From sequence record PP400786: a stretch of DNA of 64,000 nt; one strand, written 5' to 3'. Both the position numbers and the translations under genes were made by a program. This DNA is from Escherichia phage FL12. Under the pieces are notes generated by a model. The model searched no databases. It worked only from the letters and a program-made list of their open reading frames with translations, and was not told where the DNA came from. Shown one piece after another: positions 1 through 50,199 of the stretch (position 1 is the first letter of the stretch; each line of letters opens with the position of its first letter).

Positions 1-147
1 ACCATCTAATTTACACACTAAAAAGTAAAATCCAGGTTTAGATAAAATATCTTTATGCGGAGTTCCCAAAAACCATTCACCGTTCTTGATTGTACCAATA
101 ACGGTAGCGCCTGCGTTGTTCAGATCAGTAACAGTCATATATTTCAT
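1..147 (-). CDS. ndd: Ndd-like nucleoid disruption protein, N-terminal part; gene runs off the window start
   Basis: ATG near 145-147 preceded by GAGGAA RBS; frame open to position 1; N-terminus [21 protein letters not shown]... recalled as T4 Ndd-like; lies beyond denB as in T4. Confidence 0.5.
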
Positions 148-207
148 ATTAATTTCCTCTAAATTATTTTCTACTCCAAGGCCGCATGAATACACACGGC
201 CATTAAA

Positions 208-423
208 TTAATCGTCGCAGTCGACGCTCAATTCCCAGAATTCTTCTACGGTATAAGTTTCAGTATCATTTTCAATACAGAAACGTTCATTACTGTTATT
301 TGCTAAAGTAGCGTTAACTGTCATTTTCTCGCTGGTGCTCTTGAGAGGTGAAATACGAATTAACTGATCACCACTATCCAAGCAAAAAATTTCACCAACT
401 TTTACATCTTTAAAACTTTTCAT
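208..423 (-). CDS. hypothetical small protein (ndd.x position)
   Basis: 71 aa ORF with GAGGTGA RBS upstream of ATG. Confidence 0.5.
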   Translation of the reverse strand: MKSFKDVKVGEIFCLDSGDQLIRISPLKSTSEKMTVNATLANNSNERFCIENDTETYTVEEFWELSVDCDD

Positions 424-538
424 AATTCACCTCAAGGAGTATAAAATCCAAATGCAGTTGTTGACCATCCCATCCAATATGGAAAATTTGCGCCAATGTA
501 AAACATAAGAATATAAAACCAAATGTTTAGTAAATTCA

Positions 539-757
539 TTATTTTACACCATTCCAAATTGTTTCAACCACAGATTTTAAACCATTTTGATGAATATCAA
601 TTCCGACTACCGCCATCAAATAGATTCCAACTACAACTGAACCCAAGGCGAAAATCAACATGAAAATGAATAAAGCCGGAAAAATATTATCGAAAAACCA
701 TTCCATAAATGTAAAAGCACTGCGTTTACGCTTCATATTTTCCTCACATAAATCCAA
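539..757 (-). CDS. small hydrophobic membrane protein
   Basis: 72 aa ORF, largely hydrophobic (predicted TM helices). Confidence 0.45.
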   Translation of the reverse strand: MDLCEENMKRKRSAFTFMEWFFDNIFPALFIFMLIFALGSVVVGIYLMAVVGIDIHQNGLKSVVETIWNGVK

Positions 758-856
758 AGTAAGCGTTTAATACATCAATCATTAAAACGATTGGGAATAT
801 ACTCAAAACTACTAGTATTATAACTACATTCCATATAGCTTTAACAATCTTTTTCA
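744..856 (-). CDS. small membrane peptide (about 37 aa; ORF-track start at 992 trimmed)
   Basis: Internal ATG (MKKIVKAIW...) directly follows promoter plus GGAGGA leader; the longer track ORF would read through the promoter. Confidence 0.4.
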
Positions 857-879
857 TTTTCTGTTCCTCCGTAGTTGAT

Positions 880-916
880 AGGGTAATAATACCACAGAGG
901 AACAGTCTTGTAAACA
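880..916 (-). promoter_or_regulatory. T4-type early promoter (GTTTAC, 18 nt, TATTAT) with conserved GGAGGA leader
   Basis: Minus strand GTTTACAAGACTGTTCCTCTGTGGTATTAT; leader ...CTATCAACTACGGAGGAACAGAAAATG. Confidence 0.5.
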
Positions 917-1100
917 ACTTTTTTAAAAATATTCGTAATAAATGTGAATACCAATCACTACTGCCGAAACTTGCGCAACCCACCACGCACAAGCAATAAG
1001 TACAGAATTCAAAATCTTCATAATAACCTCATCACAAAAGTAAATGTTAAACAAATTAATGGAATACTAATTAACCAAACAAAACACCACCATAATGAAC

Positions 1101-1364
1101 TCATAGTTCAATCTCAGCGATTTTCATTTCATTACTATTAATAGCCGCTTTAAGACTATCTGAAAGAATTACATTCCAGTGGTCATTCATATGACCATTA
1201 ACTAAGCGTGTAATTTCTTCAGGAGTTGAAAAATAAGGCGTATCAGACTCCCAATGCGATAGTCCCAAGCGAGTATAAATCATACCTTCATCATCGCTAG
1301 AATATTCAACTGACACAAACTCATCAGTTATTTTATGTTTAGCGTAATAAAATTTAAATTTCAT
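1101..1364 (-). CDS. hypothetical protein
   Basis: 87 aa ORF; ATG preceded by conserved leader ending GGAGGAGT. Confidence 0.55.
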   Translation of the reverse strand: MKFKFYYAKHKITDEFVSVEYSSDDEGMIYTRLGLSHWESDTPYFSTPEEITRLVNGHMNDHWNVILSDSLKAAINSNEMKIAEIEL

Positions 1365-1389
1365 TTTTACTCCTCCGTAGCTGATAGTT

Positions 1390-1422
1390 GTATAGTACCA
1401 CAGTCCTTGTGGTTTGTAAACC
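1390..1422 (-). promoter_or_regulatory. T4-type early promoter plus conserved leader
   Basis: Minus strand GTTTACAAACCACAAGGACTGTGGTACTAT then ACAACTATCAGCTACGGAGGAGT. Confidence 0.5.
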
Positions 1423-1436
1423 GTTTTGTGAAATTT

Positions 1437-1994
1437 TTAAATGGAAAGATACCATCCGTTGTAGTTGCTTTTTCTTACAACTTTACGAAGGTCTTCTCTA
1501 TCACCGATGAACTTCGGAGTGTACTGGATGACACCTGGATGAATTTCTTTAGTGTTGAATATAATTATACAGTCAGCGACTTGGTGATTCAGAATGGGCC
1601 CTAGATTTATTCCAGAACCATATGGATACTCTCCGCTGCATCCGGTTGTTACCGAAATCCAACGTGAGTCAGTTTGATGTGTTTTGACTTCTACACGAAG
1701 CCCACAGTATTTTGGATGCGCCAGTACATCCCATGCGTACGTATACGGGTCATTAACATCCTCTTGGCCTTTGTTAACATACCCACTCAGCCAATCTGCT
1801 ACAAAAAACTCTGCATACACAGCGATACGGCATCTTTCGATAACTTCTGCTTTATCCTGGTTCGGGTTTTGTTTTAAAGAGTATCTTGCTGTATCAGCAA
1901 TTTTGACCTTCATTTCACTAGTCAAGTCACTGTTCGATAGGGTAAATGACGGAATCTGAAATAGTCTCTGCAAACCCGGATTCGTTTTCTGCAT
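1437..1994 (-). CDS. denB: DenB-like endonuclease IV (by position and size)
   Basis: 185 aa ORF immediately downstream of rIIB region; T4 DenB is 185 aa in the same position. Confidence 0.5.
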   Translation of the reverse strand: MQKTNPGLQRLFQIPSFTLSNSDLTSEMKVKIADTARYSLKQNPNQDKAEVIERCRIAVYAEFFVADWLSGYVNKGQEDVNDPYTYAWDVLAHPKYCGLRVEVKTHQTDSRWISVTTGCSGEYPYGSGINLGPILNHQVADCIIIFNTKEIHPGVIQYTPKFIGDREDLRKVVRKSNYNGWYLSI

Positions 1995-2057
1995 TTAAAC
2001 TTTCCTTTATGTCGGAATCACTGATATTCATATAAATCATAATTTCTCTTAAAACAA

Positions 2058-2075
2058 AAGGGCCGAAGCCCTTAT
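2058..2075 (-). terminator. UUCG-tetraloop hairpin plus U-tract
   Basis: Minus strand AAGGGC-UUCG-GCCCUU followed by UUGUUUU. Confidence 0.6.
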
Positions 2076-2076
2076 T

Positions 2077-2271
2077 TTATTTGAATTGTGCAATTCTTTT
2101 CTCTAAACAGTCAGCATAAGATTTCATTGAGATAAACTGCGAAAGTAACAGTTCTTGCTCAACTGCACTAACTGTTAGAAACTTTGTGCTTTCTAAAAAT
2201 TTGCTCAGTGCATTAATTTTGAGCATTAATTGATCGTATTCTTCTTTTACTCGTGCTTGATAACCTAACAT
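2077..2271 (-). CDS. hypothetical small protein (rIIB.1 position)
   Basis: 64 aa ORF, followed by UUCG hairpin terminator. Confidence 0.5.
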   Translation of the reverse strand: MLGYQARVKEEYDQLMLKINALSKFLESTKFLTVSAVEQELLLSQFISMKSYADCLEKRIAQFK

Positions 2272-2279
2272 AATTTTCC

Positions 2280-3218
2280 TTATTTAAATTGTTCAGTAAC
2301 GTCTTCAACTACTTCGTATTGGCAGGTACGCATTTTAGCATCGTTGTAATCAATTGGAATTGATACTACATCACGAGGATGCACTTTAACTTTTACAACT
2401 CGGCTAGTTGAACTGCCAAAGTGACGAATATAAGATTTAGAACACACATGCAGACCACGAGAACAAGTTTGTGTATCATCGTCATTCACACGAGTGCGTG
2501 GCATTTTAACTACTTTACCAGGACTGTTATCAAAGGTATTTGAGTGACAGTCAAAGTAATTGCTGCGAACTACTTTCCAAGCATAGAAGTAGCCGTCTTC
2601 TGTAATTTCAATATCGTTTGCTACCAAGAAATCAAAGAGTCGAGATACCGCTTTTTGGCTCGGGTTTTCCAACAGATTTTCCAAGAACGGAAAATAAAAT
2701 TCAAAGTTTTCGCCTTTTTCCATCGAATCGAGAATACGATCAACTAAACCAGACCGCAATTCAATATTTTGATAGAACAGGCTTCCACCTTCAATTCGAA
2801 CATCACCGGAAATATATTTTTCAACAGCGCGACGAACGTTAATTTTTTGCGCAGCTTCTTCTAATTTATCTGCAACAAGCAGATTAAGAATTTCCTGGAA
2901 GTTTGAATGAGTATTAGGAGTTGCGTTATAAGTTACACCATCAACAGTAATTGAAATGAATTTTTTAGATGCATTCCAAATAATGTCAGATTTAGCAACT
3001 GGAGCAATAGCTACATCACTCTTAACTTCAACTGTAATGTCACCGCTAATGGTAACTTTGGAGCGTTCAGCTTCTTCAGCATTTTTCAAAACACGACGGA
3101 TTGTGTCAACAGATACACCTTGCCAATCAGCCAATTCCTGTTGGGTGTAATTACCACTTGAATACAGTTTGACAATTTCAGCTTGTTCGTTTTTGGTCAG
3201 GCATTTAATATTGTACAT
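2280..3218 (-). CDS. rIIB: rIIB protein
   Basis: 312 aa, same length as T4 rIIB; N-terminus MYNIKCLTKNEQAEIVKLY...; directly downstream of rIIA. Confidence 0.8.
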   Translation of the reverse strand: MYNIKCLTKNEQAEIVKLYSSGNYTQQELADWQGVSVDTIRRVLKNAEEAERSKVTISGDITVEVKSDVAIAPVAKSDIIWNASKKFISITVDGVTYNATPNTHSNFQEILNLLVADKLEEAAQKINVRRAVEKYISGDVRIEGGSLFYQNIELRSGLVDRILDSMEKGENFEFYFPFLENLLENPSQKAVSRLFDFLVANDIEITEDGYFYAWKVVRSNYFDCHSNTFDNSPGKVVKMPRTRVNDDDTQTCSRGLHVCSKSYIRHFGSSTSRVVKVKVHPRDVVSIPIDYNDAKMRTCQYEVVEDVTEQFK

Positions 3219-3229
3219 AATTTTCCTTA

Positions 3230-5407
3230 TTAGGCCGCAAGGGCCTTCATAGTTTTAGCGATTTGGGAAACTTCATCATCACTTAAAGAGTTGCGATAAC
3301 CGATGAAGTCGGAAACAATACGGAATTTCTTGGTAAACTCAGCAACCATTTTATCACTGTTTTTTGAAGCATTATTTGATAATACATCAAAAAGATTAGT
3401 TACTGTCCAGATGTCATGACCGATGGTATCTTTTCCACCGTTGAAATATATACCCTGCAATGAACTAACCATATTACCAAGGCGAGTATATTCTTCGGAA
3501 ACTTCATCTACACTGAAGTACTTCATCATAAAATCTAGTTCAGGATACTTAATAATTTTATCAATATATCGTTTAGCTGAACTTGAATAACCTACATACT
3601 TATCATAATCTACAGCATCAAAAGCATCTACATATAAATCACGCAGAGTTTCAAAAATACATTGGCACTGACCGAGTTCTTTTACCTTTTTCTGTAAAAG
3701 CGGACGAATAACATAAAATTCATTAATGCCAATAAGATTAGCCATACGAGTCAAAATACTCGTAGACGGATTACAAAGCGATGTAGTACCATCCATAGAG
3801 AAAATATCAGAACGATGCATGTATGCTACATAACCAGTAATTTCATCTGCTTCTGACGTAAGTGTAAACAGTTCCTCTTTTTCCCAACGCCCGTCTTTAA
3901 TTTCAAACTTAAATGCTGTAGCAGCTTTAGGACGAGGAGCTTTACTTTTAACTACCTTTGGAATATAGCTTTTAACTAAAGCTTCAATTTCTGACAAATA
4001 ATGAATGTTAACTTCATCACTTTCAAACATTGCCATAATATCAGGGAGTAAATCAATCTGCGATTCTACTTCCGGATTAATAAACAGAAGACGCTCATTG
4101 TGATGAATATTCAAAGTGTTATTAAATTCACTATCATCTAATGCACGTGCTAATCCACGGACAATATTAACACGATTTTTAATATTATCAATAACAATAT
4201 TAATTTTTGTCGTATTAATACCAAACAGACGATAACTTGATGCAACGGCTGAAGTTTCATGGCTTTGCTTAATGCGTTTCAGTCGAGGGTCAAGATTTAC
4301 TTCATACACAACCCCTGCATTGCATAACTTACTGTCAGGTTCAAACATGCTCTGCATCTTTTTATATGACAGATTTTTAGTCGTGAATTTGACTGAATTA
4401 CTAATCATATAATCTCGAGCAGAATACCCCATCTTCATTAATTCACGATATGTGTGACGAGGAGATGTAGATTCTTTAAATCGTTTTACATCTTCATTAA
4501 ATGCTTTCTCACTGAGTTCTTTAACTCGTTCAATAATATTTTTACGAGTGCGATCGTCTAATGAAAGAGCTTCGCGTGATGGGGCAATATCAAGTGAACC
4601 CATTGGAAATTTAATGTAATTCACTTCATTGCGAATGCTTAGCCAGTTACGGTCTCTAATAACACCATCGATAGGATAAACAATACCGCCATAGATAGCA
4701 TATAATCCACCGCGATCAGGCCAGTATCTTTCTGGATTTACACCGTAATAGTCATCAAAATCCGGAAAATAATCAACTTCACGGTCAAGACCATTAATGA
4801 TAGCCAAATCTTTGAACGGTCGCATGATATAAGAAACTTCATAAGCAAAGTTTCTAAAGTCTTTTTCTTCAACTGGAACTACGATTTCAATACCAGTTTT
4901 ATCATCTGGACCCATTTCTTTTACGAATGTAGGTTTAATCTGTGGACCATCACCGTCCATATAAGCTACATAACCACGAATTTCACCTTTATGGTATGAA
5001 GTAATACTAAACGTATCAGTATAACTAAATGGAGATTTAGAACCTAAACCAAATCCGCCAATAAAGTCATTAGATTCAGCCTTAGATGAACTAAAGTATG
5101 AATTATACAACCCAGGAGAATTATCATCACCTTGAATATCAAAATCACTCATACCCGGACCAAAATCTCGACAAACAAATCGTGGGTCTAAACGTCCAGG
5201 AACTTGTATGATAAATTTTTCAGGATTTCCATTAAGTGCATGGGCATCAATCATGTTAGTAATTAATTCACGGACTACTGCGCGAATCTTGTTTGTATAC
5301 AAATCAGATGACAGAATTTTAAATACTTTAGGAGATGCTGTGATGCTAAATGCTTTTGATTTAGAACCATTACCAAGAATTGTTTCTTTTTCAGTGGTGA
5401 TAATCAT
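3230..5407 (-). CDS. rIIA: rIIA protein (GHKL-type ATPase domain)
   Basis: 725 aa, same length as T4 rIIA; N-terminal histidine-kinase-like ATPase motifs ([21 protein letters not shown]). Confidence 0.85.
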
Positions 5408-5677: not shown

Positions 5678-5777
5678 ACTGGCTCATCCATTCTTTACGA
5701 AGGTCAGGATTAAATGGGACTGCACGAGATGGGATAAACATAACTTTCATAATTAAGCCTTATTAAAATTAAAACGA

Positions 5778-5793
5778 AGCTCCCGAAGGAGCT
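5778..5793 (-). terminator. UUCG-tetraloop hairpin plus U-tract after HNH gene
   Basis: Minus strand AGCUCC-UUCG-GGAGCU followed by UCGUUUUAAUUUU. Confidence 0.6.
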
Positions 5794-6605
5794 TAGGACA
5801 TCCAACACATTTTATAACCTTTGCAGGTTCTGTTAGGATTATTTAATGCTTTCAATATATTAGAAGACCCTATATCTAAATACTCCCTTAATTCATAAAG
5901 ATAGTTAAAATCAACAGTTTCACCTGTTTTTACACTTGTGATTCTTATAGGCCTTCTTTCATATTTAGATTTATACAACTCTCTAGTCTTAGCTTTAGTT
6001 TCTTCTGACCTAGGAGTGTATGGTTTAAATCCTTTTGTTTTAAATGTTTCCATTCTTGATTTAGTTATTTTATCCTGGTGTTCTTTTGTTTTTACAGGTG
6101 CTTTTCGCCCATTCTCCCAAGATAACTTGTTGGCCTGTATTATTTTATCTATTGCTTCTTGCGTATGAGTTTTACCATAAAATGGATTTAATTCGCCTAT
6201 ACGTTGTGAAGCAATATGTGACATTAATTCTCTTGTTGCTTTAGTATGTTTTTTACCTTTAAATGGGTTGCCATTTTTAGCAATCCATTCTTTCATAAAT
6301 CTAGAGTGCTCTTTAGAGAATTCTTGTTTAAGCCAATCATAATCTCTAGAATTTCTAGCTCCCATGTAAAAAGCTCTAATAGCCATAAGCATAGAACGGT
6401 TCTTATGAATTTTATAAAGCAATAAATGGGCGATAAAATGCTCTCTAGGGGTCATTTTAACTAGATTTGATTTAGCATTACTCCCGCCCATAGATTTAGG
6501 CAAAATATGGTGAGTTTCAGTATAATTAGGAATAGTGCTGCGGTTTTTAGCCGCAGCGATAAGTTTATCATAAATTTTACGATAATTCATTATCGTAGCA
6601 TCCAA
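5793..6605 (-). CDS. HNH homing endonuclease (Mob-type) with NUMOD-like repeats
   Basis: 270 aa; HNH motif ETHHILPKSMGGSN...REH; repeated NPF(Y/K)GK(T/K)HT motifs; sits between rIIA.1 and gp39 as mobA does in T4; 5' end overlaps gp39 3' end. Confidence 0.75.
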   Translation of the reverse strand: MDATIMNYRKIYDKLIAAAKNRSTIPNYTETHHILPKSMGGSNAKSNLVKMTPREHFIAHLLLYKIHKNRSMLMAIRAFYMGARNSRDYDWLKQEFSKEHSRFMKEWIAKNGNPFKGKKHTKATRELMSHIASQRIGELNPFYGKTHTQEAIDKIIQANKLSWENGRKAPVKTKEHQDKITKSRMETFKTKGFKPYTPRSEETKAKTRELYKSKYERRPIRITSVKTGETVDFNYLYELREYLDIGSSNILKALNNPNRTCKGYKMCWMS

Positions 6606-8410
6606 TCTTTACGGAGTTCAGGGTCGTTACCCATGAGCATTTCAAATAGTTCTTTCCAATTTTCAGGAAGTTTAACTACGTCGTACACAGGGTTTTGAAT
6701 CATTTCTTTATATTCATCCCGCTGAAGTGAGCCCAATCCCTTGATGTATCGAATACTATGCTTAGGCAGTGTATCTTTAGCTTCTTCATACTCAGCTACA
6801 GTATAAAACCATTTTTGAGTTTTGCCAATTTGTGCAATAATTACAGGCGTTTTAACAAAGCGAATACGTCCTTGTTCAAACAATTCAGGCCAATTACTAA
6901 AGAAAGCAAGCAAAGCCGGATAAATACTTCCAAGTCCGTCATGATCGGCATCGGTCATAATAGCAATATTATGATAATTCAAGTTTTCAGCTTTTTCACC
7001 GAGAACTAATCCAGTGATTGCGCAAATATCAAATAGTTCTTTGTTTTTAAGCATATCTGCATAAGACATACCCCAACTGTTGAGAACTTTACCACGCAAT
7101 GGATAACCACCGTGAAGTTCTTTATCACGAACATCAATAAGATATCCGATAGCAGAATCACCCTCAGTCAAGAAAAGAGTAGTGTCAGCATCTTTACCAC
7201 AAAGATTCGCTTTGATATGTTTATGAACCTTAGCTTTAGAAGCCTTTTTAGCTGCCTTTGTTTCTGCTGCTTTTTCTGCCGCCAATTTACGAGCTAGTGC
7301 AGCTTCAATAATCGGCATTAAAATTGCTTCATTATTCAAAATAGCACGTGAAATCTTTTTAGCATCAAGTTGAATATGACTACGGATTTCACCAAATGGA
7401 GAAGTCAAACGCTCTTTAGTTTGAGAATCAAATCGCATGTTTTTCATATCACGAACAAACATAACGATAGTCAAACATTCTTTGACACGCGCTTTAGTTA
7501 CATCAATTTTGAACTTGCGTTTGATTTGTGGAATAAGGTCTTCACAAATATCATCCATAACACAGTCAATGTGATGGCCACCATTCTTAGTATGAATGTT
7601 ATTCACATAAGTTAATTGACGAAAACCATCCGGTGAACGACCAACCGCAATAGAACAGTTTTCTTGTTCTTGAACGATAGCATGCTCATCATACTGCCGT
7701 GCATATTTCTTAAAATTGCCCTGAACCTTTTTACCATTAAAGGTAAATTGAATATCAGGATAAACAACAGCAAGTGTCTGGAGACGATCCAGTGTAATGT
7801 CAAGATAAACCTGAGACAGCTCATTAGTTTCAAATGACATAAAATCAGGAATGAAAGTAACGCGAGTTCCTTTCCATTTTCCAGGAATATCTTCCCATGA
7901 TTTATTTTCCATGCCGTTTGAACAACGAACTACAATATTATTTTGACCATCGCCAGTTTCACCAACAAACATCACAGAAAAAATGTTTGTCAAACTAGAA
8001 CCAACACCATTCATACCACCGGTGACACGTTCTTTATCATCACCAAAGTTACCACCTGCTTTTGGAATAGTCCATGCAGCAACAGGACCAGGAATTTCTT
8101 CACCGGTAGGTGTTTTAACCATCGCTTGTGGAATACCACGACCGTTATCTTCAACTGTTACTTGATTGTTTTTAATAGTAACATTAATTTTATTTGCGAA
8201 TTTAAACTTAGTACGAATACCTTCATCTACTGAGTTATCGATAATTTCATCAATAAGCTTAACAAGACCAGGTACATACTGAACACTTTCCCATTTACCA
8301 AACAGAAAGCGCTCATGCATTTCATTAGCTGAAGAGCCAATGTACATGCCGCTACGCTTTTTGATATGTTCAATATCGCTCAGAATTTTAATTTCATTCT
8401 TAATCATCAC
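6590..8410 (-). CDS. 39: DNA topoisomerase II large subunit gp39 (GyrB-like ATPase; apparently fused 39+60 form)
   Basis: 606 aa; N-terminus MIKNEIKILSDIEHIKKRSGMYIGS typical of gp39/GyrB; Toprim-like region; single uninterrupted ORF. Confidence 0.85.
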   Translation of the reverse strand: MMIKNEIKILSDIEHIKKRSGMYIGSSANEMHERFLFGKWESVQYVPGLVKLIDEIIDNSVDEGIRTKFKFANKINVTIKNNQVTVEDNGRGIPQAMVKTPTGEEIPGPVAAWTIPKAGGNFGDDKERVTGGMNGVGSSLTNIFSVMFVGETGDGQNNIVVRCSNGMENKSWEDIPGKWKGTRVTFIPDFMSFETNELSQVYLDITLDRLQTLAVVYPDIQFTFNGKKVQGNFKKYARQYDEHAIVQEQENCSIAVGRSPDGFRQLTYVNNIHTKNGGHHIDCVMDDICEDLIPQIKRKFKIDVTKARVKECLTIVMFVRDMKNMRFDSQTKERLTSPFGEIRSHIQLDAKKISRAILNNEAILMPIIEAALARKLAAEKAAETKAAKKASKAKVHKHIKANLCGKDADTTLFLTEGDSAIGYLIDVRDKELHGGYPLRGKVLNSWGMSYADMLKNKELFDICAITGLVLGEKAENLNYHNIAIMTDADHDGLGSIYPALLAFFSNWPELFEQGRIRFVKTPVIIAQIGKTQKWFYTVAEYEEAKDTLPKHSIRYIKGLGSLQRDEYKEMIQNPVYDVVKLPENWKELFEMLMGNDPELRKDWMLR

Positions 8411-9927: not shown

Positions 9928-10026
9928 AATTTCCTCATTAATTGAACATTGGAGCGATGCGTTTCAGAAGAGTATCAGCGCACCTTTAACGAATTATTCA
10001 TTTTATTCTCCAAGTTGTTTTCTGTA

Positions 10027-10068
10027 TCAGTAGTTGATATTGATATAGTACCATAATCAACTACTGAT
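10027..10068. repeat. perfect 13-bp inverted repeat with 16-nt loop in intergenic region
   Basis: ATCAGTAGTTGAT ... ATCAACTACTGAT; loop contains TATAGTACCATA. Confidence 0.6.
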
Positions 10069-10097
10069 GTATATAGTTTTATGAAAAAATTTAAACT

Positions 10098-10589
10098 TTA
10101 TGCATAGCGAGCTTTGCTGTAGTGTTTAATCCAACTTTCAGGAATGACTTTGTATGTTCCTAAAAATACCGCGTTGTATAACTTAACGCCATCTTCTACC
10201 CATTGATCAGTAATGTATGCACACATAGCGCGAGTACGGTTAACAACACCTTCCTCACCTTCAGTAAATTCAAACTCATAAGGAGCAACGAACTTGATAG
10301 CTTGACCGAGTTTCCACTTAAAGTCTACACCTACATGCGAAGTATCAATCGTTTCAATTCCTTTAGCAGGAACAGCTTTCAAAAACGCAGATTCAAGAAA
10401 TTTCGCGCGAACATAACCAAACTGAGGTTTAGACTTTCCATCTTTAGGAATGATACGAACTTTTACTTCAGAATCTTCATCTTTAACGCCGTGTTTAAGC
10501 TGAATGCTTACAATTTCGACCAATTTTCCTGCTGCTTTAGAACGGGATTTATCAGATACACGAGCAATTTCACCAATATTAATAATCAT
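10098..10589 (-). CDS. MotB-like protein, paralog A
   Basis: 163 aa; C-terminal motif YITDQWVEDGVKLYNAVF shared with adjacent ORF; T4 MotB is 162 aa in this region. Confidence 0.5.
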   Translation of the reverse strand: MIINIGEIARVSDKSRSKAAGKLVEIVSIQLKHGVKDEDSEVKVRIIPKDGKSKPQFGYVRAKFLESAFLKAVPAKGIETIDTSHVGVDFKWKLGQAIKFVAPYEFEFTEGEEGVVNRTRAMCAYITDQWVEDGVKLYNAVFLGTYKVIPESWIKHYSKARYA

Positions 10590-11211: not shown

Positions 11212-11751
11212 TTATCTCATTTCAATAAAATCTACGAGTTCAGCATGCGATTTGCGGAACATTACTTGATGCCCACCAATGATAACTTCATCTTCAGGAA
11301 CTTCGTATACAGCGAGATAAAATCCTTTAGAAGATAATTCTTCCCGCTCTTCTCGTGTGAACCATCTCATCATATCATATTCGCTAGCGAAAGCAAAATG
11401 ATAAAGAGCTATAAACCATCCTGGAATATGATATTCTACTCCAACATAATCTTTCTTGAACTTAGTATTAATTACTATATTAGCGTTTTTAACTAATAGT
11501 TTATCTTCGTGTGGTAAAGGAATTCTTTTATTATTATCGCTATGATGCATAAAATTAGGTCTGTCATAACCTACGTGTAATAGCCACTCTTCGCTCCATG
11601 AATCTATTATACTCCTGTATGGCGTTATTTGAACACAAAGATTTCGACGTATTGTTATAGCATCTTCACAATTAAGAATACTAAACGATGATTCAACACG
11701 GTAAATTTTCATTTTATTATCCTCAGTAGCTATGGTGTTATAATACCACAA
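11212..11751 (-). CDS. hypothetical protein
   Basis: 179 aa ORF downstream of early promoter. Confidence 0.5.
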   Translation of the reverse strand: MWYYNTIATEDNKMKIYRVESSFSILNCEDAITIRRNLCVQITPYRSIIDSWSEEWLLHVGYDRPNFMHHSDNNKRIPLPHEDKLLVKNANIVINTKFKKDYVGVEYHIPGWFIALYHFAFASEYDMMRWFTREEREELSSKGFYLAVYEVPEDEVIIGGHQVMFRKSHAELVDFIEMR

Positions 11752-11775
11752 CTAACCGAGGAAGTAAACAACTTT

Positions 11776-19398: not shown

Positions 19399-19608
19399 TT
19401 AAATTACATGATTATTTATAATAAATTCTCGCGGAACGTTAAAATATCCGATTTTAGTTAATATAACAACATCACCGTTAATAATTACCGGAGAATAATC
19501 TTCTGGAGCATTAAATTTCCAATGGGCTCTAATATTATATCCATCAGAACCAAATGCTCGAGTAGCCGGTCTCCCGGCTTTTTGCCACGCGTAGAAATCA
19601 AATTTCAT
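19399..19608 (-). CDS. hypothetical small protein
   Basis: 69 aa ORF. Confidence 0.45.
   Translation of the reverse strand: MKFDFYAWQKAGRPATRAFGSDGYNIRAHWKFNAPEDYSPVIINGDVVILTKIGYFNVPREFIINNHVI
19414..19421 (-). promoter_or_regulatory. late promoter TATAAATA upstream of soc
   Basis: Plus-strand TATTTATA about 35 nt upstream of soc start; soc is a capsid (late) gene. Confidence 0.5.
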
Positions 19609-19805
19609 TTTGAATGCTCTATAATTAATTTTAAGGCTTCTTCGCTGACAAAAATTTCGTCAGGACCTTCTTCTATAACCCAATCAACCATACGAAGTTG
19701 ATTAGTTAAGAGCTCACATACGAGCTCCTTGTTATAATCTTTAAATAGCTGGTTAATACGTTTCTTATGGGCTTTCTTAAGCTGACGCTTATTTAAACGA
19801 GCCAT
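19605..19805 (-). CDS. hypothetical small basic protein
   Basis: 66 aa ORF. Confidence 0.45.
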   Translation of the reverse strand: MARLNKRQLKKAHKKRINQLFKDYNKELVCELLTNQLRMVDWVIEEGPDEIFVSEEALKLIIEHSK

Positions 19806-20323
19806 TAATAACCTCGGTCTTGACGAGCGAAGTTTTCAGCATTTTTCAGGTAATAAAGTTTAAAGATTTCTTCAGCTGACATTCCAAGAGCAATAAATTT
19901 ATTCATGAAAAAGTGAAATTGGTCAATCAGTTCAAATTTAATTTCAAGCTGATCTTCGGGAGATAAATCTTGAATTTTCTTGGATTGCATTTCAGAATAA
20001 CGTTTCTTCCAAGGTTTCCATACAGCAGAAGCTTCTTTTTCACCATTACTCATACCACCAAGAGAAGTATATAGTTCGCGAGTTTCATCTGCGATATAAT
20101 CGTCTTGGTTTCGCAACCAAGCAAGAACTTCTCCTGCGGTTTCAAGTGAATCAGGATGACGATTTGTTTCTGGTTTATCATTAGCCAAACGAATCTGTAA
20201 ATGCCGCTGCATATCAAGCATAACCTGCAGTGGGTCAATATTGTGCATAATATTCTCAGCATATGCACGATTTGCTTTATCAACACCTTCGATCAAATGA
20301 GCACATTCATTAAAGTAAGCCAT
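19805..20323 (-). CDS. 56: dCTP pyrophosphatase gp56 (MazG-like)
   Basis: About 172 aa from internal ATG (MAYFNECAHL...); all-alpha NTP-PPase-like; ORF-track N-terminal extension reads into the intergenic promoter. Confidence 0.65.
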   Translation of the reverse strand: MAYFNECAHLIEGVDKANRAYAENIMHNIDPLQVMLDMQRHLQIRLANDKPETNRHPDSLETAGEVLAWLRNQDDYIADETRELYTSLGGMSNGEKEASAVWKPWKKRYSEMQSKKIQDLSPEDQLEIKFELIDQFHFFMNKFIALGMSAEEIFKLYYLKNAENFARQDRGY

Positions 20324-23390: not shown

Positions 23391-23573
23391 TTATCCTCGG
23401 CAATCCACTTCACATACTTTCTTGTCATCAATAAAAGCTTCAACTAATGCTTTATTAACTTCAGCATACTGAGTAGTAGCCCATTGAACGTCATCTTTCA
23501 TCATTGTGGTTTCTTTAGTAAACATGCTTTCATTCTTAAACCACCCCATAAAAACTACCTTTACCAATTCCAT
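23391..23573 (-). CDS. hypothetical small protein
   Basis: 60 aa; GAGGAG RBS. Confidence 0.45.
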   Translation of the reverse strand: MELVKVVFMGWFKNESMFTKETTMMKDDVQWATTQYAEVNKALVEAFIDDKKVCEVDCRG

Positions 23574-23631
23574 AACAATCTCCTCATTTAACCAACAAGA
23601 CTACTATACCATAGTCTCGTCAGCTTGTAAA

Positions 23632-25059
23632 CTAAAATTTTAATTCATTCGCCAAAGCATCTAACTGAGCTCGAGCTGATTCGTTTCTTTGATAGCGATT
23701 CTGTTCAGCCTGAATCTGTTGTGAACCTGCTACTTCGTTCACTTCAGTTGGAGTAGAATCTTGTTCAATTTCTACCCATTTCTGATTTCCCTTTTGAACA
23801 CCCATCAAAAACTTATTCCATTTGTTCTTATCGCCATATCGTGATTTGATTTGCTTAATGAGTTGTTGTTCAGCAGCTGCTAGCTCCTCGGTTTCAATGA
23901 CTGCAAGCATAAAATCAGCTGTTGCTGGAAGACCGGCAGATTCTGCAATATCGCTCATGTTAACATCGGAAGAGTCCCAAGCTTGTTTACCAACCTGTGC
24001 TGCAGTCCAAAGAACAGTTTCGGTTTCAACAGCCAGAGCACGCAATTCCTCGGCAATAGCTTTAACAGTTGTGTAACTATTTTCTGAATAAACTCTAATG
24101 CGGCAAGATTTACAAATACCTAGATAGTCGACAATAATGATTGTTGGAACAAAATTCTTCTTGAGCTTCAATTCGTTTAAAAGTGATCGAAATGTATTAG
24201 CATCTGCTCCACCAGTAGGATATTGTTTAACGATTAAACGACCGAGAGTAGATTTCTCACGCCATTTTTCCATTTTTCCTTTATACTCAGCGTAAGAAAT
24301 ATGCCCATCATCAATGTCATCAAGAGAAACATCAAGCATATTAGCGTCAATACGTTTAGCACAGACTTCTTCTGCCATTTCCATGGAGATATAAAGAACG
24401 TTATGACCAAGCTGTAAATAATCTGCTGCCAATGAACACAATCCTAATGATTTACCAACGTTAACGCCAGCCATTAAAACGTTCAGTGTTCCAGTCTCAG
24501 CTCCGCCTTTAGTAATTTTGTTTAGAATTCTGAGTTTAAATGGAACCTTACGAGCTTTATTCATATAAGATAGCCAGCGTGCTTCGTAGTCATCCATCCA
24601 ATCATGACCAACGTAGCTATCAAATGAAATTGATAATGCTTGACGCATGATGTCAGGAATAGCACCAACATCCGGCATTTTCTTATTTCGTTTTTCCGGA
24701 GGAAGCTCAGCATTAGTTTGAATTTCGATTATTTTAGACGTAGCATTAAACATCGCCCTTTGCTGAACATATTTTTCTGTTTCTTTTACTAACCAGCTGT
24801 GGTCTTCTGGAGAATCGGCTAGTTTTGAAATAAGTGTTTTTACACCAGAATATTCCGTTTCAGTAAATGAACTATTTTCTAATGCAACATTTAACGCATT
24901 AATAGATGGAACGCTATGATACTCATTGACATGAGATTTAATTAATTTGAATGTATTTTTAGCTGGACCACTTTCAAAATATTCTGAATCCATATATGGC
25001 CAAACTTTTGAAAAATAAGCTTGATCAAATATGAGATGAGAAAGAATAATTTCTACCAC
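23632..25059 (-). CDS. 41: replicative DNA helicase gp41 (DnaB-like)
   Basis: 475 aa as T4 gp41; Walker A GVNVGKS; RecA-like core. Confidence 0.85.
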   Translation of the reverse strand: MVEIILSHLIFDQAYFSKVWPYMDSEYFESGPAKNTFKLIKSHVNEYHSVPSINALNVALENSSFTETEYSGVKTLISKLADSPEDHSWLVKETEKYVQQRAMFNATSKIIEIQTNAELPPEKRNKKMPDVGAIPDIMRQALSISFDSYVGHDWMDDYEARWLSYMNKARKVPFKLRILNKITKGGAETGTLNVLMAGVNVGKSLGLCSLAADYLQLGHNVLYISMEMAEEVCAKRIDANMLDVSLDDIDDGHISYAEYKGKMEKWREKSTLGRLIVKQYPTGGADANTFRSLLNELKLKKNFVPTIIIVDYLGICKSCRIRVYSENSYTTVKAIAEELRALAVETETVLWTAAQVGKQAWDSSDVNMSDIAESAGLPATADFMLAVIETEELAAAEQQLIKQIKSRYGDKNKWNKFLMGVQKGNQKWVEIEQDSTPTEVNEVAGSQQIQAEQNRYQRNESARAQLDALANELKF

Positions 25060-29651: not shown

Positions 29652-30044
29652 TCACTTAGTCAAATTTTTTACACATGAATTATAAGAATTCACTACATAC
29701 TCCATCGGAGCAGTTTTACCTGTGCGCCATTGGTAATTATTAGCCCAATTTGCCCAAAGTTCAGCGCAGTAGTTTTCAATTTTTTCTTCGCGTGTAATTA
29801 CATCAGAATTACGATATGCTTGAGCAGATTCATCTGGACGAATAGCTTCGTCAAAATTCGCCTGCATTTGTTCTACTGTCTGTTTTGGAGCTTCTTTATA
29901 ACACTTGACATTAGGATTATAAAATTTGCTTGAACAGTTTACAATTTTTCCTACATCAGACTGATTTACTACCGGTCCTTGAGCTACACAACCAGCAAGA
30001 CCTAATGCAATAACCAAAATAGCGATTTTCATTTCATTCTCCAA
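29652..30044 (-). CDS. putative lipoprotein (imm.1 position)
   Basis: 130 aa; signal peptide plus lipobox LAGC. Confidence 0.5.
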   Translation of the reverse strand: MENEMKIAILVIALGLAGCVAQGPVVNQSDVGKIVNCSSKFYNPNVKCYKEAPKQTVEQMQANFDEAIRPDESAQAYRNSDVITREEKIENYCAELWANWANNYQWRTGKTAPMEYVVNSYNSCVKNLTK

Positions 30045-30065
30045 ATCCGTATCAGTTGATAGTTG

Positions 30066-30097
30066 TATAGTACTATAGAAGAGCAGGGATGTAAACA
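30066..30097 (-). promoter_or_regulatory. T4-type early promoter plus conserved leader
   Basis: Minus strand GTTTAC...TACTATACAACTATCAACTGATACGGATTTGGAGAATG. Confidence 0.5.
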
Positions 30098-30184
30098 GTT
30101 ATGTGAAAAAATTTTTAGGGAATCCAAAGGGTCCAGAATCATCTCTTTTTCATAAGTATAGATTTATATTACTTGTATGAAAAA

Positions 30185-39643: not shown

Positions 39644-40844
39644 ATTTTGTAATAATGTCAAACTGTTCTTTAAAGCAGAAGCTTGAATCTTGATGCTGAT
39701 ACAAAAATTCATATGCTTTTTCTCGCTCACGGTCATAAAGAACTCGGTCAGATGACAATTCTTTAATACGTTCAAATGTTGATTCCATGTCATTTTCATC
39801 AAACCAAATGATACCGCTATCATGTGAGGTCAAAGGAGTATTATCAACACGGAATTTTAAATTTTCGCCAGTAGATTTCCAGAAAACAGGAATTGTACCG
39901 CAAGCACCTAATTCAAGATGAGTATATTCGAGTGAGCGTTGTAAGTATTTCTGGTTAAGTTTACTCAACTGATATCCAAAGCCAGATTTACTCATTCGTT
40001 CAAGCATTTCACTATTAATATAACAATCTAGGATTTGTGCCGGTTGATTCGGCGCGAGATTCATTTTATCAATCTCACGATTACCGTAATATTCATGCGG
40101 AATACCTTTTTCCTTAATTGCAATAAAAGCAGGGGAACGTTCAAGACCTTCCATTACAGTGGATTTACCAGCAGGTTTTAAGAATTTTTCATGAAAATCA
40201 AACATCTGATAAAAACCTTTCCATGTAGTCGTACGACCAATCCAACGGTTGGTGTTCATGTTAATTTCAGAAACATCTTTCCAATAAGTTGACCGAACCT
40301 TCGCAATATCCATAGGAGGCTGAAAATTATATACTGTTGGTGCTTCTTCAATATCATCAAACAGAGAAACAGTTTCTGGATACCATTCTTTCATCAGAAC
40401 TTTATTAAAATCACCATTATCAGAATGGCTAAAAATAACATCAGCTCGACGAACAGTTTCTTCTAATCCCAAATTTCGACGCAAAGAAAGAACAGAATGA
40501 TCATGCTGATAAACTACAACACGAATAGAAGGTTTAATATTATCTAAAAGTTTTTTATAGTTATTAATCGTAGCTTCTTGAACGGAAGTAGCAGGAACAG
40601 AATTAATAATTAGAATATCACAATCATTTACCAGCTTAAGTGCTTTATCGTATTCTTTAGCTAAAATAACTGGAATTGAAAATGATTTGTGGTCATGAGA
40701 ACTTGTACGAGTAAATGATTTATCTTTAGCATAAACCAAAGTTACTTCATGGCCATTTTTAATAAACCAATCACGCTGCTCAAGAGAAAATTTAGTTACA
40801 CCGCAACCTTCAAGACCCCGAGCCAGAAAAATGCATACTTTCAT
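39642..40844 (-). CDS. agt: DNA alpha-glucosyltransferase
   Basis: 400 aa as T4 alpha-gt; between 55 region and 47. Confidence 0.7.
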   Translation of the reverse strand: MKVCIFLARGLEGCGVTKFSLEQRDWFIKNGHEVTLVYAKDKSFTRTSSHDHKSFSIPVILAKEYDKALKLVNDCDILIINSVPATSVQEATINNYKKLLDNIKPSIRVVVYQHDHSVLSLRRNLGLEETVRRADVIFSHSDNGDFNKVLMKEWYPETVSLFDDIEEAPTVYNFQPPMDIAKVRSTYWKDVSEINMNTNRWIGRTTTWKGFYQMFDFHEKFLKPAGKSTVMEGLERSPAFIAIKEKGIPHEYYGNREIDKMNLAPNQPAQILDCYINSEMLERMSKSGFGYQLSKLNQKYLQRSLEYTHLELGACGTIPVFWKSTGENLKFRVDNTPLTSHDSGIIWFDENDMESTFERIKELSSDRVLYDREREKAYEFLYQHQDSSFCFKEQFDIITK

Positions 40845-40899
40845 TTAATATCCTCTTTGTTTTGGTTTATTTTATCAAAAAAATTTATAAAGCAATATA

Positions 40900-49895: not shown

Positions 49896-50140
49896 AAATT
49901 TTTAACATTATTAACAGCTATTATAGAAGATAGTAATCGGGAACGTTTGAACCACTCGAGCAAAGAACCAAGAGAATGTGAATACGCATTTTGTGTATCT
50001 TTACAAATATGGTTTTCCCATCCAATATAGTCTAAAAAATCACGAAGAATATTATTGATTACTGCTCTGTGTCCTATCTGATAATTACGGTGTTTAGTAA
50101 TAAGACTGTCAAAATAATCAATATAATGTTTACGAGTCAT
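49823..50140 (-). CDS. hypothetical protein (start trimmed to ATG after GAGGAG RBS)
   Basis: ORF-track start at 50191 lies inside the early promoter; about 105 aa; 3' end overlaps next ORF by about 73 nt. Confidence 0.4.
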   Translation of the reverse strand: MTRKHYIDYFDSLITKHRNYQIGHRAVINNILRDFLDYIGWENHICKDTQNAYSHSLGSLLEWFKRSRLLSSIIAVNNVKNLCIQATLRLMYQMLVLLHLILLTT

Positions 50141-50167
50141 AATAATCTCCTCAGTAGAAAATAAGAA

Positions 50168-50199
50168 CATTATACCACATCCTTGTGGCAAAGTAAACT
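50168..50199 (-). promoter_or_regulatory. T4-type early promoter
   Basis: Minus strand GTTTACTTTGCCACAAGGATGTGGTATAAT. Confidence 0.5.

Follow-up and report, generated by a model that had tools for sequence, protein, structure and literature searches.

T4-type early promoter and leader cassettes repeated in a 64,000-nucleotide stretch of Escherichia phage FL12, with predicted read-through hairpins in a subset

The window, meaning the whole 64,000-nucleotide stretch of Escherichia phage FL12 (PP400786) analysed here, comes from a phage of the Tequatrovirus type and corresponds to the part of the T4 map that starts at approximately 165.7 kb, crosses the origin, and ends at 64.2 kb. It is 96-97% identical to Tequatroviruses of the RB3/RB6/FL08 type, is collinear with T4 in gene order, and carries every gene on the minus strand. 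These genes include regB (62063-62524, minus strand), which, as a preliminary description of the sequence had proposed, encodes the endoribonuclease RegB (153 aa; Pfam REGB_T4, PF10715, E 5.9e-69). An Rfam search of the whole window matched no family, so neither the leader nor the hairpins discussed below represent a curated RNA family.

All six copies of the promoter-leader cassette listed in the preliminary description are in place on the minus strand, with the G of GTTTAC at 915, 1421, 30096, 53171, 55307, and 58742. Each copy follows the same layout of GTTTAC, 18 nt, TAYTAT, and a 20-30 nt leader that closes with a Shine-Dalgarno sequence of the GGAG type and the ATG; the +1 positions given below are predicted by spacing alone. 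Cassette 915 (855-939) has an UP region and lies upstream of a 37-aa ndd.4-like membrane ORF, with the -35 element at 910-915, the -10 box TATTAT at 886-891, the predicted +1 at 879, GGAG at 867-870, and ATG at 855-857. Cassette 1421 (1362-1445) precedes an 87-aa ORF (1101-1364) absent from T4, with the -35 element at 1416-1421, the -10 box at 1392-1397, the predicted +1 at 1385, GGAG at 1373-1376, and ATG at 1362-1364. Cassette 30096 (30030-30120), upstream of imm.1, comprises the -35 element (30091-30096), -10 box (30067-30072), predicted +1 (30060), GGAG (30039-30042), and ATG (30030-30032). Cassette 53171 (53112-53195), upstream of nrdC.8, comprises the -35 element (53166-53171), -10 box (53142-53147), predicted +1 (53135), GGAG (53123-53126), and ATG (53112-53114). 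Cassette 55307 (55241-55356), upstream of nrdC.10, has the architecture of a promoter-early stem-loop (PeSL) cassette, with an intrinsic terminator at 55337-55356 just upstream, the -35 element at 55302-55307, the -10 box at 55278-55283, the predicted +1 at 55271, and ATG at 55241-55243. Cassette 58742 (58682-58775), upstream of mobD.5, has an intrinsic terminator (58758-58775) just upstream, the -35 element at 58737-58742, the -10 box at 58713-58718, the predicted +1 at 58706, GGAG at 58691-58694, and ATG at 58682-58684. A seventh, degenerate cassette, absent from the earlier list, is found at 9999-10098 on the same strand (cassette 10074), with the -35-like ATATAC at 10069-10074, the -10 box TACTAT at 10045-10050, and an ATG (9999-10001) that opens an ORF of only about 8 codons; it shows 85% identity to the T4 e.8 promoter across 102 bp.

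GTTTAC is exact at -36 to -31 in all six loci, and TAYTAT follows it after 18 nt in each of them, preceded by TGG in five loci and by TAG at 30096. A/T-rich UP elements, judged by eye, appear as AAAAATTTTTCACAAAAC-like stretches at -40 to -60. The core is common to many more promoters, as had been claimed: GTTTAC-N18-TAnnnT has 20 matches, exclusively on the minus strand and all with exact GTTTAC, against 0.93 expected and a shuffle maximum of 4. The exact 15-mer TACTATACAACTATC occurs in five loci of the window, whereas 0.26 matches are expected with up to two mismatches, and five were reached in none of 100 shuffles. The likeness of the leaders thus exceeds chance, the outcome on which the preliminary description had staked its case. 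The G+C content of the genome is 34%, and a generic sigma-70 scan shows no enrichment (73 matches vs 68.6 in shuffles), which could favor an origin of the likeness in chance or low-complexity A/T-rich sequence. This explanation is refuted, and retains virtually no probability, by the excess of the core on one strand and at one spacing together with that of the 15-mer. The T4-specific pattern alone discriminates early promoters here; the generic scan does not.

Comparison with the published T4 early-promoter consensus (Liebig and Rueger 1989; Miller et al. 2003; summarised in PMC2988021 and PMC1524935) shows agreement in GTTTAC at -36 to -31 and in TGn plus TAnnnT at -12 to -7. The annotated early promoter of T4 motA belongs to the same promoter and leader family, records of phage fPS-65 label orthologous copies as predicted early promoters, and the nrdC.8 cassette is found in 682 phage records, at 4-7 places per Tequatrovirus genome. 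The motA relationship and the fPS-65 annotation, along with identity and collinearity with T4, bear out the earlier identification of these elements as T4 early promoters with a repeated leader. The module consists of an A/T-rich UP element, a -35 GTTTAC(A), a spacer that measures 17 bp when counted in the usual sigma-70 manner, an extended -10 of TG(G)-TAYTAT, and the discriminator ACAACT. A predicted start near the A of ATCAAC comes next, and the unstructured leader, about 20-35 nt long, leads to a Shine-Dalgarno sequence of the GGAG type and the ATG. Host sigma-70 RNA polymerase is established to fire such modules directly after infection in T4 and, by orthology, would do so here; the orthology draws on the annotated motA promoter and on the mobD.5 promoter, seen as a reverse-transcriptase stop in T4.

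The leader is near-identical among copies, as described earlier, but the ending GGAGGA is restricted to 915, 1421, and 53171, with GGAGAA elsewhere. About half of what had been called the leader (ACAACT, -6 to -1) precedes the predicted start and belongs to the promoter rather than to the transcript. Two leader subtypes are distinguished, type A with ATCAACTACGGAGGAAC and type B with ATCAACTGATACGGATTTGGAGAATAAAATG; locus 915 carries a variant, TATTAT-TACCCTATCAAC, and cassette 10074 has a type B leader with GGAGAATAAAATG. Folded from +1, the leaders reach 0 to -3.8 kcal/mol (0 kcal/mol for cassette 53171), with GGAG mostly unpaired.

The preliminary description had also suggested that transcripts whose leaders end in GGAG may be selectively cleaved by RegB. 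All seven leaders do contain GGA with a following G (or U), but general cutting does not follow, as GGAG by itself is not enough and efficient cleavage calls for an 11-nt site, GGAGRAYARAA (Durand 2006, PMC1702504). The type B leaders of 10074 and 55307 have no mismatch to this motif and match the published RegB/S1 site GGAGAAUAAAA exactly, in 55307 as GGAGAATAAAA at 55243-55253. The type B leader of cassette 30096 has one mismatch (GGAGAATGAAA at GGAG), cassettes 53171, 58742, and 1421 have two, and cassette 915 has three. In T4, GGAG of nrdC.8, the ortholog of 53171, is "moderately cleaved" by RegB (Durand 2006, PMC1702504), and the mobD.5 transcript, orthologous to that of 58742, is "not sensitive to RegB" in published experiments. 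RegB sensitivity would be set by leader subtype rather than by the cassette: efficient for type B, moderate for type A, and none for mobD.5.

The same data bear on a stronger form of the idea raised in the preliminary description, in which the conserved leader is a RegB/S1 recognition module marking transcripts for early destruction. The identity of the type B leader with the T4 optimum, the membership of the motA promoter and leader in the family (motA being a classic RegB target), and the single-stranded state of leaders folded from +1, which RegB requires, are all in its favor. However, recognition by RegB does not depend on a particular sequence on the 5' side of GGAG (PMC1702504), so the shared ACAACTATCAACT block cannot be a RegB signal. 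Type A leaders are 2-3 mismatches from the site, and in T4 the mobD.5 transcript resists RegB while nrdC.8 is only moderately cut. Moreover, Shine-Dalgarno-type GGAG is common in T4 and not specific to the cassettes, with 25 occurrences on the minus strand of the window, and many non-cassette sites, including that of regB itself, score equally well or better. A recognition module is therefore considered unlikely.

The spacers had been described as often palindromic, which fails as a general claim: arms of at least 5 bp occur in 5 of 20 spacers versus 12% of control windows, and within-spacer palindromes are not enriched overall (mean arm 3.7 vs 3.47). The enriched dyad instead joins the spacer to sequence downstream of the -10 box. 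In T4, 26% of promoters have a spacer complement of at least 7 nt in their own downstream region, compared with 3.2% of mismatched pairs. Folding of the leaders, suggested earlier as a check, supports structure only in part: transcripts from +1 are unstructured, and hairpins of 14-18 bp enclosing the -10 box and the start site (z -4.0 to -5.6) are predicted only when upstream read-through RNA is included.

This predicted hairpin subset comprises cassettes 915, 53171, and 10074, together with the regB, dexA, 57930, and 23632 promoters, in each of which the spacer is complementary to sequence past the -10 box. In cassette 915 the arms are 891-905 (spacer plus TGG) and 861-875 (leader plus Shine-Dalgarno), with a fold of -23.2 kcal/mol (z -5.55); in cassette 53171 they are 53147-53160 and 53118-53131 (-20.5 kcal/mol, z -5.25). 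GGAG is fully paired in the predicted read-through RNA of both. The spacer of cassette 10074, ATCAGTAGTTGAT, is exactly complementary to its leader sequence ATCAACTACTGAT (-20.2 kcal/mol, z -5.01). The dexA early promoter (11709-11769, minus strand) has the core only, with a hairpin over the Shine-Dalgarno sequence (-23.7 kcal/mol, z -5.15). The Shine-Dalgarno sequence is predicted to be buried at 915, 53171, dexA, and regB, with an unpaired probability of 0.00 and z of about -5. Promoters 57930 (57869-57930, minus strand) and 23632 (23572-23632, minus strand) exhibit a type I hairpin, which brackets the -10 box; the former has a perfect 13-14 bp inverted repeat flanking the box, with the Shine-Dalgarno sequence free (-20.2 kcal/mol, z -4.99), and the latter a G-U-rich inverted repeat around it (-18.6 kcal/mol, z -4.01). 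Only two of the six originally listed loci have the hairpin, and the remaining four fold no better than shuffles, among them 1421 (z -0.43), 30096 (z +0.21), and 55307 (z +0.95).

Across a representative promoter set, read-through folds average -11.05 kcal/mol with native spacers and -8.39 kcal/mol with swapped spacers (p 0.005), and folds of -15 kcal/mol or below are reached by 19 of 60 native versus 3 of 60 swapped spacers. The set carries a bias, since its IMG/VR loci were selected by a pattern that included TATCAACTA. The representative helices contain 16 G:T against 5 A:C. A strong hairpin occurs at none of 10 promoters with an upstream terminator versus 19 of 49 without one (Fisher p 0.022), and this exclusion pattern makes sense only if read-through RNA matters. 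Burial of the Shine-Dalgarno sequence is found in 7 of 60 representative promoters and is not a general effect of native spacers (0.50 vs 0.47 in spacer-swapped chimeras). For nrdC.8 in Mosigvirus, the form covering the Shine-Dalgarno sequence is not kept, and another hairpin brackets the -10 box. The type A family shows little covariation, most of it single changes that preserve wobble pairs.

The regB promoter (62521-62581, minus strand) has the core without the shared leader, and its spacer TTTTCCTCTTGACTG is complementary to CAGTTAAGAGGAGAA, a segment containing the Shine-Dalgarno sequence of regB (-22.4 kcal/mol, z -5.48). Folding predicts this hairpin in six lineages, including Karamvirus and Jiaodavirus. 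Compensatory changes are present at 6 of 15 pairs in the four lineages aligned pair by pair, namely Tequatrovirus, the 77% and 68% IMG/VR lineages, and Gelderlandvirus. A MAFFT alignment of the regB upstream region misplaced a 1-nt gap; hence, the arms were re-extracted and aligned by position from the CUCC and GGAG anchors, with no independent aligner. WSPA (Muldoonvirus), Aes508, and ECD7 have no such hairpin before regB, and SP18 is uninformative, having been folded from the annotated start at locus position 206 where the protein match implies about 248.

Because the spacer is complementary to sequence past the -10 box, RNA arriving from upstream would fold with the -10 box and start site in the loop; the 5' arm would be the otherwise untranscribed spacer and the 3' arm the discriminator, the initial transcribed region, and sometimes the Shine-Dalgarno sequence. 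Transcripts initiated at the promoter would lack the 5' arm and stay open. We infer that the hairpin may limit translation, and RegB access, to promoter-proximal transcripts, such that read-through RNA of regB, nrdC.8, the ndd.4-like gene, and dexA would be neither translatable nor open to cutting by RegB. It is conceivable, at somewhat less than even odds, that many T4-like early promoters sit in such an RNA hairpin acting as a translational insulator, closed in read-through RNA and open in promoter-started RNA. The insulator would limit expression of regB and similar genes to the immediate-early burst, replacing an upstream terminator, and would account for the tolerance of the modules to shuffling between contexts. 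The structure of the hairpin, as distinct from this tentative function, is well supported by the folds, permutation tests, G:U bias, regB compensatory changes, and terminator exclusion.

The dyad could alternatively act in DNA, as an operator for a dimeric repressor that switches early promoters off or as a recombination-stimulating cruciform, for example an endonuclease VII substrate. True palindromes do exist, with CATAAAG/CTTTATG within the spacer of cassette 55307 and ACCACA/TGTGGT inside that of cassette 1421, the latter type recurring as (T)ACCACA/TGTGG(TA) at 1421, 5676, and 50198. The literature, in addition, calls early-promoter shut-off "not completely understood", and the authors of the PeSL studies speculated about a stem-loop-binding protein. 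Nevertheless, within-spacer palindromes lack overall enrichment, and the arms are wholly different in sequence from one promoter to the next although they still pair, which is evidence against an operator recognised by its sequence. The asymmetry of G:T over A:C fits sense-strand RNA rather than duplex symmetry, and hairpins are missing wherever a terminator sits just upstream. A role in DNA thus appears very improbable, and pairing in read-through RNA is the preferred account of the dyad.

The near-identity of the copies probably reflects a shared early-promoter and start-site consensus combined with mutual exchange by homologous recombination or gene conversion. PeSL cassettes of T4-like phages (Arbiol 2010, PMC2839356; Comeau 2014, PMC4122927), described for PST and T4, comprise an AT-rich region, -35 and -10 elements, a Shine-Dalgarno sequence with ATG, and an upstream stem-loop, with the consensus TTTACW-N17-TAYWAT and exchange at ndd.4/.5. 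The imm.1 cassette is a mosaic, with its own UP element, a spacer nearest that of T4 e.8 rather than T4 imm.1, and the leader of nrdC.10. The spacers of 915 and 53171 are identical, and the leader of 1421 differs from that of its T4 ortholog. Homology to T4 breaks at 1133/1374, inside the leader of cassette 1421, and window-versus-T4 junctions at 5712 and 50121-50153 likewise lie in or beside cassettes, with most other breaks elsewhere. The mosaic copies and the indel junction inside a leader agree with the published PeSL picture, and the mosaic segments are indirect evidence of the recombination between copies, with formation of mini-circles, that this picture includes.

These observations give close to an even chance to a purely recombinational explanation, in which the leaders are near-identical solely through recent duplication or gene conversion of PeSL-type, gene-shuffling recombination linkers, and only the promoter and Shine-Dalgarno sequence are selected. 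Beyond the mosaic copies, it is favored by the 240-bp insertion with the 87-aa ORF, which starts in the leader at 1374, by the further breaks in or beside promoters, and by the coverage of the same ndd region in the published PeSL model. On the other hand, in a set fetched with a biased pattern, ATCAAC (+1 to +6) is shared across several genera by promoters whose spacers, discriminators, and downstream genes are often unrelated, and this recurrence suggests that the start region is under selection. Indels between the window and T4 mostly concern homing endonuclease genes (mobB, mobC, I-TevII, segF) and fall away from promoters, and compensatory changes in the spacer-leader helices require selection.

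Taken together, the repeats are best read, with a probability of about 90%, as T4-type early start modules that exchange sequence, with subtype-dependent RegB cutting and a hairpin in a subset. The T4 early-promoter consensus and the PeSL cassettes cover these repeats, which are therefore not new, and as a rediscovery the finding matters little. Practical uses are limited to a reliable motif by which early promoters of T4-like genomes can be annotated and a marker of places where genes are swapped. A full-text literature search, with older T4 papers outside its scope, returned no description of the spacer-leader inverted repeats. If true, these hairpins would add a layer to T4 timing, in which the promoter of an mRNA decides between translation and degradation of a gene, and could explain why RegB is made almost exclusively in the first minutes after infection.

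Compared with known systems, the modules resemble T4 early promoters in GTTTAC, TGn plus TAnnnT, the A-rich UP element, placement before early genes, and orthologous positions for imm.1, nrdC.8, nrdC.10, mobD.5, and the ndd region; nothing essential differs, the window having few substitutions, swapped spacers, and one replaced leader. With PeSL cassettes they share the composite order from AT-rich region through -35/-10 to Shine-Dalgarno and ATG, many similar copies in variable early regions, and, for some copies, a link to gene insertion or replacement, including the ndd.4/.5 region. Unlike PeSL cassettes, only two of the six loci (55307 and 58742) have the defining terminator directly upstream; a terminator lies 87 nt upstream of 30096, and none is found within 130 nt upstream of 915, 1421, 53171, or 10074. 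The predicted hairpins, moreover, surround the -10 box rather than lying upstream of the -35 element. The resemblance to RegB/S1 sites (PMC1702504) consists of a GGAG left single-stranded where translation of early mRNAs begins and the exact type B match, whereas the upstream leader block has no role in recognition, the copies vary in sensitivity, and one ortholog is a published RegB-resistant control. A structural parallel to the hairpins is offered by T4 genes e, soc, 49, and I-TevI, which combine a ribosome-binding-site hairpin with an internal promoter (reviewed in PMC3014915): there, too, the long transcript pairs the Shine-Dalgarno sequence, and the shorter transcript from the internal promoter, lacking the 5' arm, is translatable. 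In those genes the internal promoter is late (gp55, TATAAATA) and expression is delayed, whereas in the window this place is taken by an early sigma-70 promoter whose spacer itself supplies the 5' arm, and the effect would be confinement to immediate-early expression.

The cassette is a module already known from T4, an early promoter with its leader, described as PeSL (promoter-early stem-loop). All genes of the window lie on the minus strand, so the cassettes must be read as reverse complement. The six loci, named here by the minus-strand coordinate of the G of GTTTAC, precede an ndd.4-like ORF (915), an 87-aa ORF (1421), imm.1 (30096), nrdC.8 (53171), nrdC.10 (55307) and mobD.5 (58742). In each, 18 nt separate GTTTAC from TAYTAT, and a short leader then runs through a GGAG-type Shine-Dalgarno sequence to ATG. 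GTTTAC-N18-TAnnnT occurs 20 times in the window, on the minus strand only and with a single spacing, against 0.93 expected and at most 4 in shuffles, and the 15-mer TACTATACAACTATC is present in 5 exact copies, against 0.26 expected at up to 2 mismatches. Both the six-locus promoter-leader element of the preliminary description and the sharing of its core by many more promoters are confirmed.

The leaders, described there as near-identical, have the 15-mer in common at five loci but differ elsewhere. Locus 915 deviates (TATTAT-TACCCTATCAAC), the mobD.5 leader (58742) diverges beyond ATC, and two subtypes exist, type A (ATCAACTACGGAGGAAC..ATG) at 915, 1421 and 53171 and type B (ATCAACTGATACGGATTTGGAGAATnAAATG) at 30096 and 55307. 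A seventh, degenerate copy (10074, spanning 9999-10098) has a type B leader, with ATATAC where the others have GTTTAC. It has a perfect RegB-type Shine-Dalgarno sequence, yet its ATG at 9999-10001 (-) opens only about 8 codons (MNNSLKVR), perhaps a gene start in decay or a leader peptide. T4 early promoters place the -35 GTTTAC at -36 to -31 and the -10 box at -12 to -7, which puts the predicted transcription start of the cassettes at the A of ATCAAC. The proposed layout stands, but not the extent of the leader, in which the untranscribed discriminator ACAACT had been counted.

The same family is spread across the T4 genome, at ndd.6, ndd.4, motA, frd.3, e.8, mobD.5, nrdC.10, nrdC.8 and imm.1, and T4 also holds TACCCTATC variants. 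The nrdC.8 cassette occurs in 682 phage records, at 4-7 places per Tequatrovirus genome, and in Mosigvirus at about 78% identity. The -35 and -10 signals of the motA member are marked in an old T4 GenBank entry, and the fPS-65 record labels the nrdC.8 and nrdC.10 copies predicted early promoters. Reviews describe T4 early promoters by UP, -35, TGn and -10 elements plus further conserved positions. For the PST/T4 pair, PeSL elements comprise an AT-rich region, TTTACW-N17-TAYWAT as -35/-10, a Shine-Dalgarno sequence, a start codon and an upstream stem-loop, and are tied to gene exchange, with the ndd.4/.5 region as worked example (Comeau et al. 2014, PMC4122927). The window cassettes resemble them in the AT-rich region, -35/-10, Shine-Dalgarno sequence and start codon, and they fit the published T4 early-promoter consensus, the annotated motA promoter being a T4 member of their family. 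This T4-wide spread, together with the published descriptions, identifies the element as known.

The similarity between copies is in part general consensus and in part probably exchange, the latter indicated by segment-by-segment comparison (UP element, spacer, leader). T(-1), A(+1), T(+2) and C(+3) each occur in 65-80% of 60 non-redundant promoters, a set biased by loci fetched with a pattern containing TATCAACTA; ATC at +1 to +3 occurs in 8 of the 20 promoters of the window itself. The imm.1 cassette (30096) has its own UP element (23/24 to T4 imm.1), a spacer nearest to T4 e.8 (20/24 versus 18/24 to its T4 ortholog) and a leader identical to that of nrdC.10. The 915 spacer equals that of 53171 (24/24) and matches its own T4 ortholog at 22/24. 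The leader of 1421 is type A, that of its T4 ortholog (ndd.6) type B.

Region 50000-58000 aligns over its full length to Tequatroviruses such as FL08, RB3 and RB6 at 96-97% identity, and to T4 at about 96% (megablast). By local BLAST the window is collinear with T4 NC_000866, positions 1-3218 (ndd, denB, rIIB region) corresponding to T4 165,894-168,903 and 3219-64000 to T4 1-64,217. Homology stops at 1374, inside the 1421 leader, and resumes at 1133; the intervening 240 bp encode the 87-aa ORF, which T4 lacks. Further breaks, at 5712 and 50121-50153, lie in or beside promoters. PeSL shuffling is consistent with the window, yet accounts for only part of the T4 differences, since most remaining breaks are homing endonuclease genes gained or lost at a distance from promoters.

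The 87-aa ORF (1101-1364 (-), MKFKFYYAKHK...) is fused in frame to the ndd.6 start, between it and the cassette promoter, and has no Pfam match; ORFs that begin similarly (MDIKLYYAK...) also follow cassette promoters in five IMG/VR contigs. The topoisomerase II large subunit (5713-8410 (-)) is one 606-aa ORF with HATPase_c, DNA_gyraseB, Toprim and TOPRIM_C domains, and the window lacks T4 2794-3911 (gene 60 translational-bypass region, 60.1, mobA). Just downstream, within a stretch of about 890 bp missing from T4, a 270-aa ORF with NUMOD3 motifs (5793-6605) is probably a homing endonuclease. The 33 bp at 50121-50153 (-) align to both T4 49837-49869 (nrdC.3 start) and T4 50896-50928 (nrdC.4 start), and the window has a single gene for nrdC.3 and nrdC.4, as though recombination between similar gene starts had taken place just downstream of promoter 50198. 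Some 730 bp separating nrdC.9 from nrdC.10 (53563-54295) are without T4 counterpart. Absent relative to T4 are mobB, mobC, the I-TevII intron of nrdD, segF and tk.1, at window positions 40835-40860, 45073-45093, 46369-46372, 19420-19842 and 60305-60324.

The regB gene is encoded in the window as claimed, at 62063-62524 (-). RegB needs GGAG, which alone is insufficient; the site cut efficiently is a single-stranded 11-nt stretch, GGAGRAYARAA (T4 optimum GGAGAAUAAAA), and no specific sequence is required 5' of GGAG (Durand 2006, PMC1702504). In T4, 24 of 68 tested intergenic GGAG/U sites are efficiently cut, and nrdC.8 is one of two 'moderately cleaved' sites; the T4 mobD.5 transcript is reported to be insensitive to RegB. 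Scored against the 11-nt site, 55307 and 10074 have 0 mismatches, 30096 and regB's own site 1, 53171, 58742 and 1421 2, and 915 3; the minus strand carries 25 Shine-Dalgarno-type GGAGs. RegB sensitivity is thus predicted to be a property of leader subtype, and the shared ACAACTATCAACT block is not a RegB signal. The selective cleavage proposed for all GGAG leaders is predicted to be efficient for type B (0-1 mismatches), moderate for type A and absent for mobD.5.

The spacer palindromes reported earlier do exist in a few promoters, with CATAAAG/CTTTATG in the 55307 spacer and (T)ACCACA/TGTGG(TA) in those of 1421, 5676 and 50198, but are not enriched overall: arms of at least 5 bp occur in 5/20 spacers versus 12% of control windows, with mean arms of 3.7 versus 3.47. 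What is enriched is complementarity between the spacer and what follows the -10 box of the same promoter. Among 38 T4 sites, 26% have a spacer complement of at least 7 nt in their own downstream region versus 3.2% of mismatched spacer/downstream pairs, and 16% versus 0.5% at 8 nt or more. In a collection of 125 unique promoters drawn from T4, this window and the IMG/VR loci, and biased by the fetch pattern named above, helix scores of at least 10 occur in 20.8% versus 3.6%. In 60 representatives, folds of read-through RNA (transcript entering the promoter from upstream) averaged -11.05 kcal/mol with native and -8.39 with swapped spacers (Wilcoxon p 0.005), and 19 versus 3 reached -15 or lower.

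Strong read-through hairpins are predicted at 915, 53171, 10074, 11769 (dexA promoter), 62581 (regB promoter) and two other early promoters, 23632 and 57930, the GTTTAC-to-ATG RNA folding at -18.6 to -23.7 kcal/mol (z -4.0 to -5.6). The leaders of these loci remain unstructured when folded from +1. Of the six cassette loci, 915 and 53171 alone carry the hairpin; at 1421, 30096, 55307 and 58742 the folds are no better than those of shuffles. Type I hairpins have arms that directly bracket the -10 box (-29 to -17 with -6 to +7), and in type II (915, 53171, regB, dexA) the 3' arm lies over the Shine-Dalgarno sequence, whose unpaired probability is 0.00-0.02 at 915, 53171 and regB. At 57869-57930, 23572-23632 and 9999-10074 (-), the -10 box is flanked by inverted repeats of 13-15 bp, either perfect or rich in G-U, that leave the Shine-Dalgarno sequence uncovered; those of 57930 and 23632 differ in a compensatory manner (GATT/AATC versus GACT/AGTC).

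The regB Shine-Dalgarno GGAG is buried in a predicted hairpin in six lineages, Tequatrovirus (window 62521-62581 (-)), two IMG/VR lineages, Gelderlandvirus, Karamvirus and Jiaodavirus. In four, one continuous helix joins the spacer to the Shine-Dalgarno region with differing sequences: UUUUCCUCUUGACUG with CAGUUAAGAGGAGAA in the T4 type, UUCUCCUCUAGUUG with CAACUAGAGGAGAA in the 77% RegB lineage, UCUCCUGUAAG with CUUACAGGAGA in the 68% RegB lineage, and UUUCUCCUCUUUAUG with CAUAAAGAGGAGAAA in Melville (Gelderlandvirus), 5' arm first. In Karamvirus and Jiaodavirus the structure is in two parts, an inner helix around the -10 box and a short outer one (5 and 7 bp) that pairs the spacer with the Shine-Dalgarno GGAG. 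Among six sequences of the four continuous-helix lineages, with arms hand-anchored on CUCC and GGAG, both sides changed in 6/15 pairs, and the covariation score was 0.404 versus 0.135 in shuffles (0/500 reached it) and at most 0.081 with partners slid. Within the type A family a single pair is clearly compensatory (C-G to U-A), three further changes keep the pairing through wobble, and 89.7% of cells are paired versus 35-53% when slid.

The excess of G:T over A:C and the mutual exclusion of hairpin and terminator point to action as RNA rather than duplex DNA. Representative helices contain 16 G:T against 5 A:C (p 0.013), and the full set 76 against 34, with controls at about 1:1. Where a terminator lies no more than 100 nt upstream, 0/10 promoters have a strong hairpin, versus 19/49 where there is none (Fisher p 0.022). 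In the window, terminators stand directly before 55307 and 58742, neither of which has a hairpin. Aes508 regB also lacks the hairpin and has a terminator plus promoter upstream. ECD7 regB is without a promoter of its own, and Mosigvirus nrdC.8 has a type I hairpin in place of the Shine-Dalgarno-covering form. Rfam holds no family matching the hairpins. Full-text literature searches found no description of the inverted repeats, though the primary T4 promoter papers may contain one.

The RegB and palindrome interpretations of the preliminary description were only partly right. We infer that, at a subset of genes, the early-promoter hairpins may block translation of read-through RNA and shield it from RegB cleavage; such a role at regB would fit the known tight control of this gene. 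The cassette itself being known, these covariation-supported, promoter-embedded hairpins are the by-product worth pursuing. In T4 e, soc, 49 and I-TevI, ribosome-binding sites are likewise hidden in hairpins (PMC3014915), but those hairpins enclose a late promoter, whereas the window hairpins enclose an early one.
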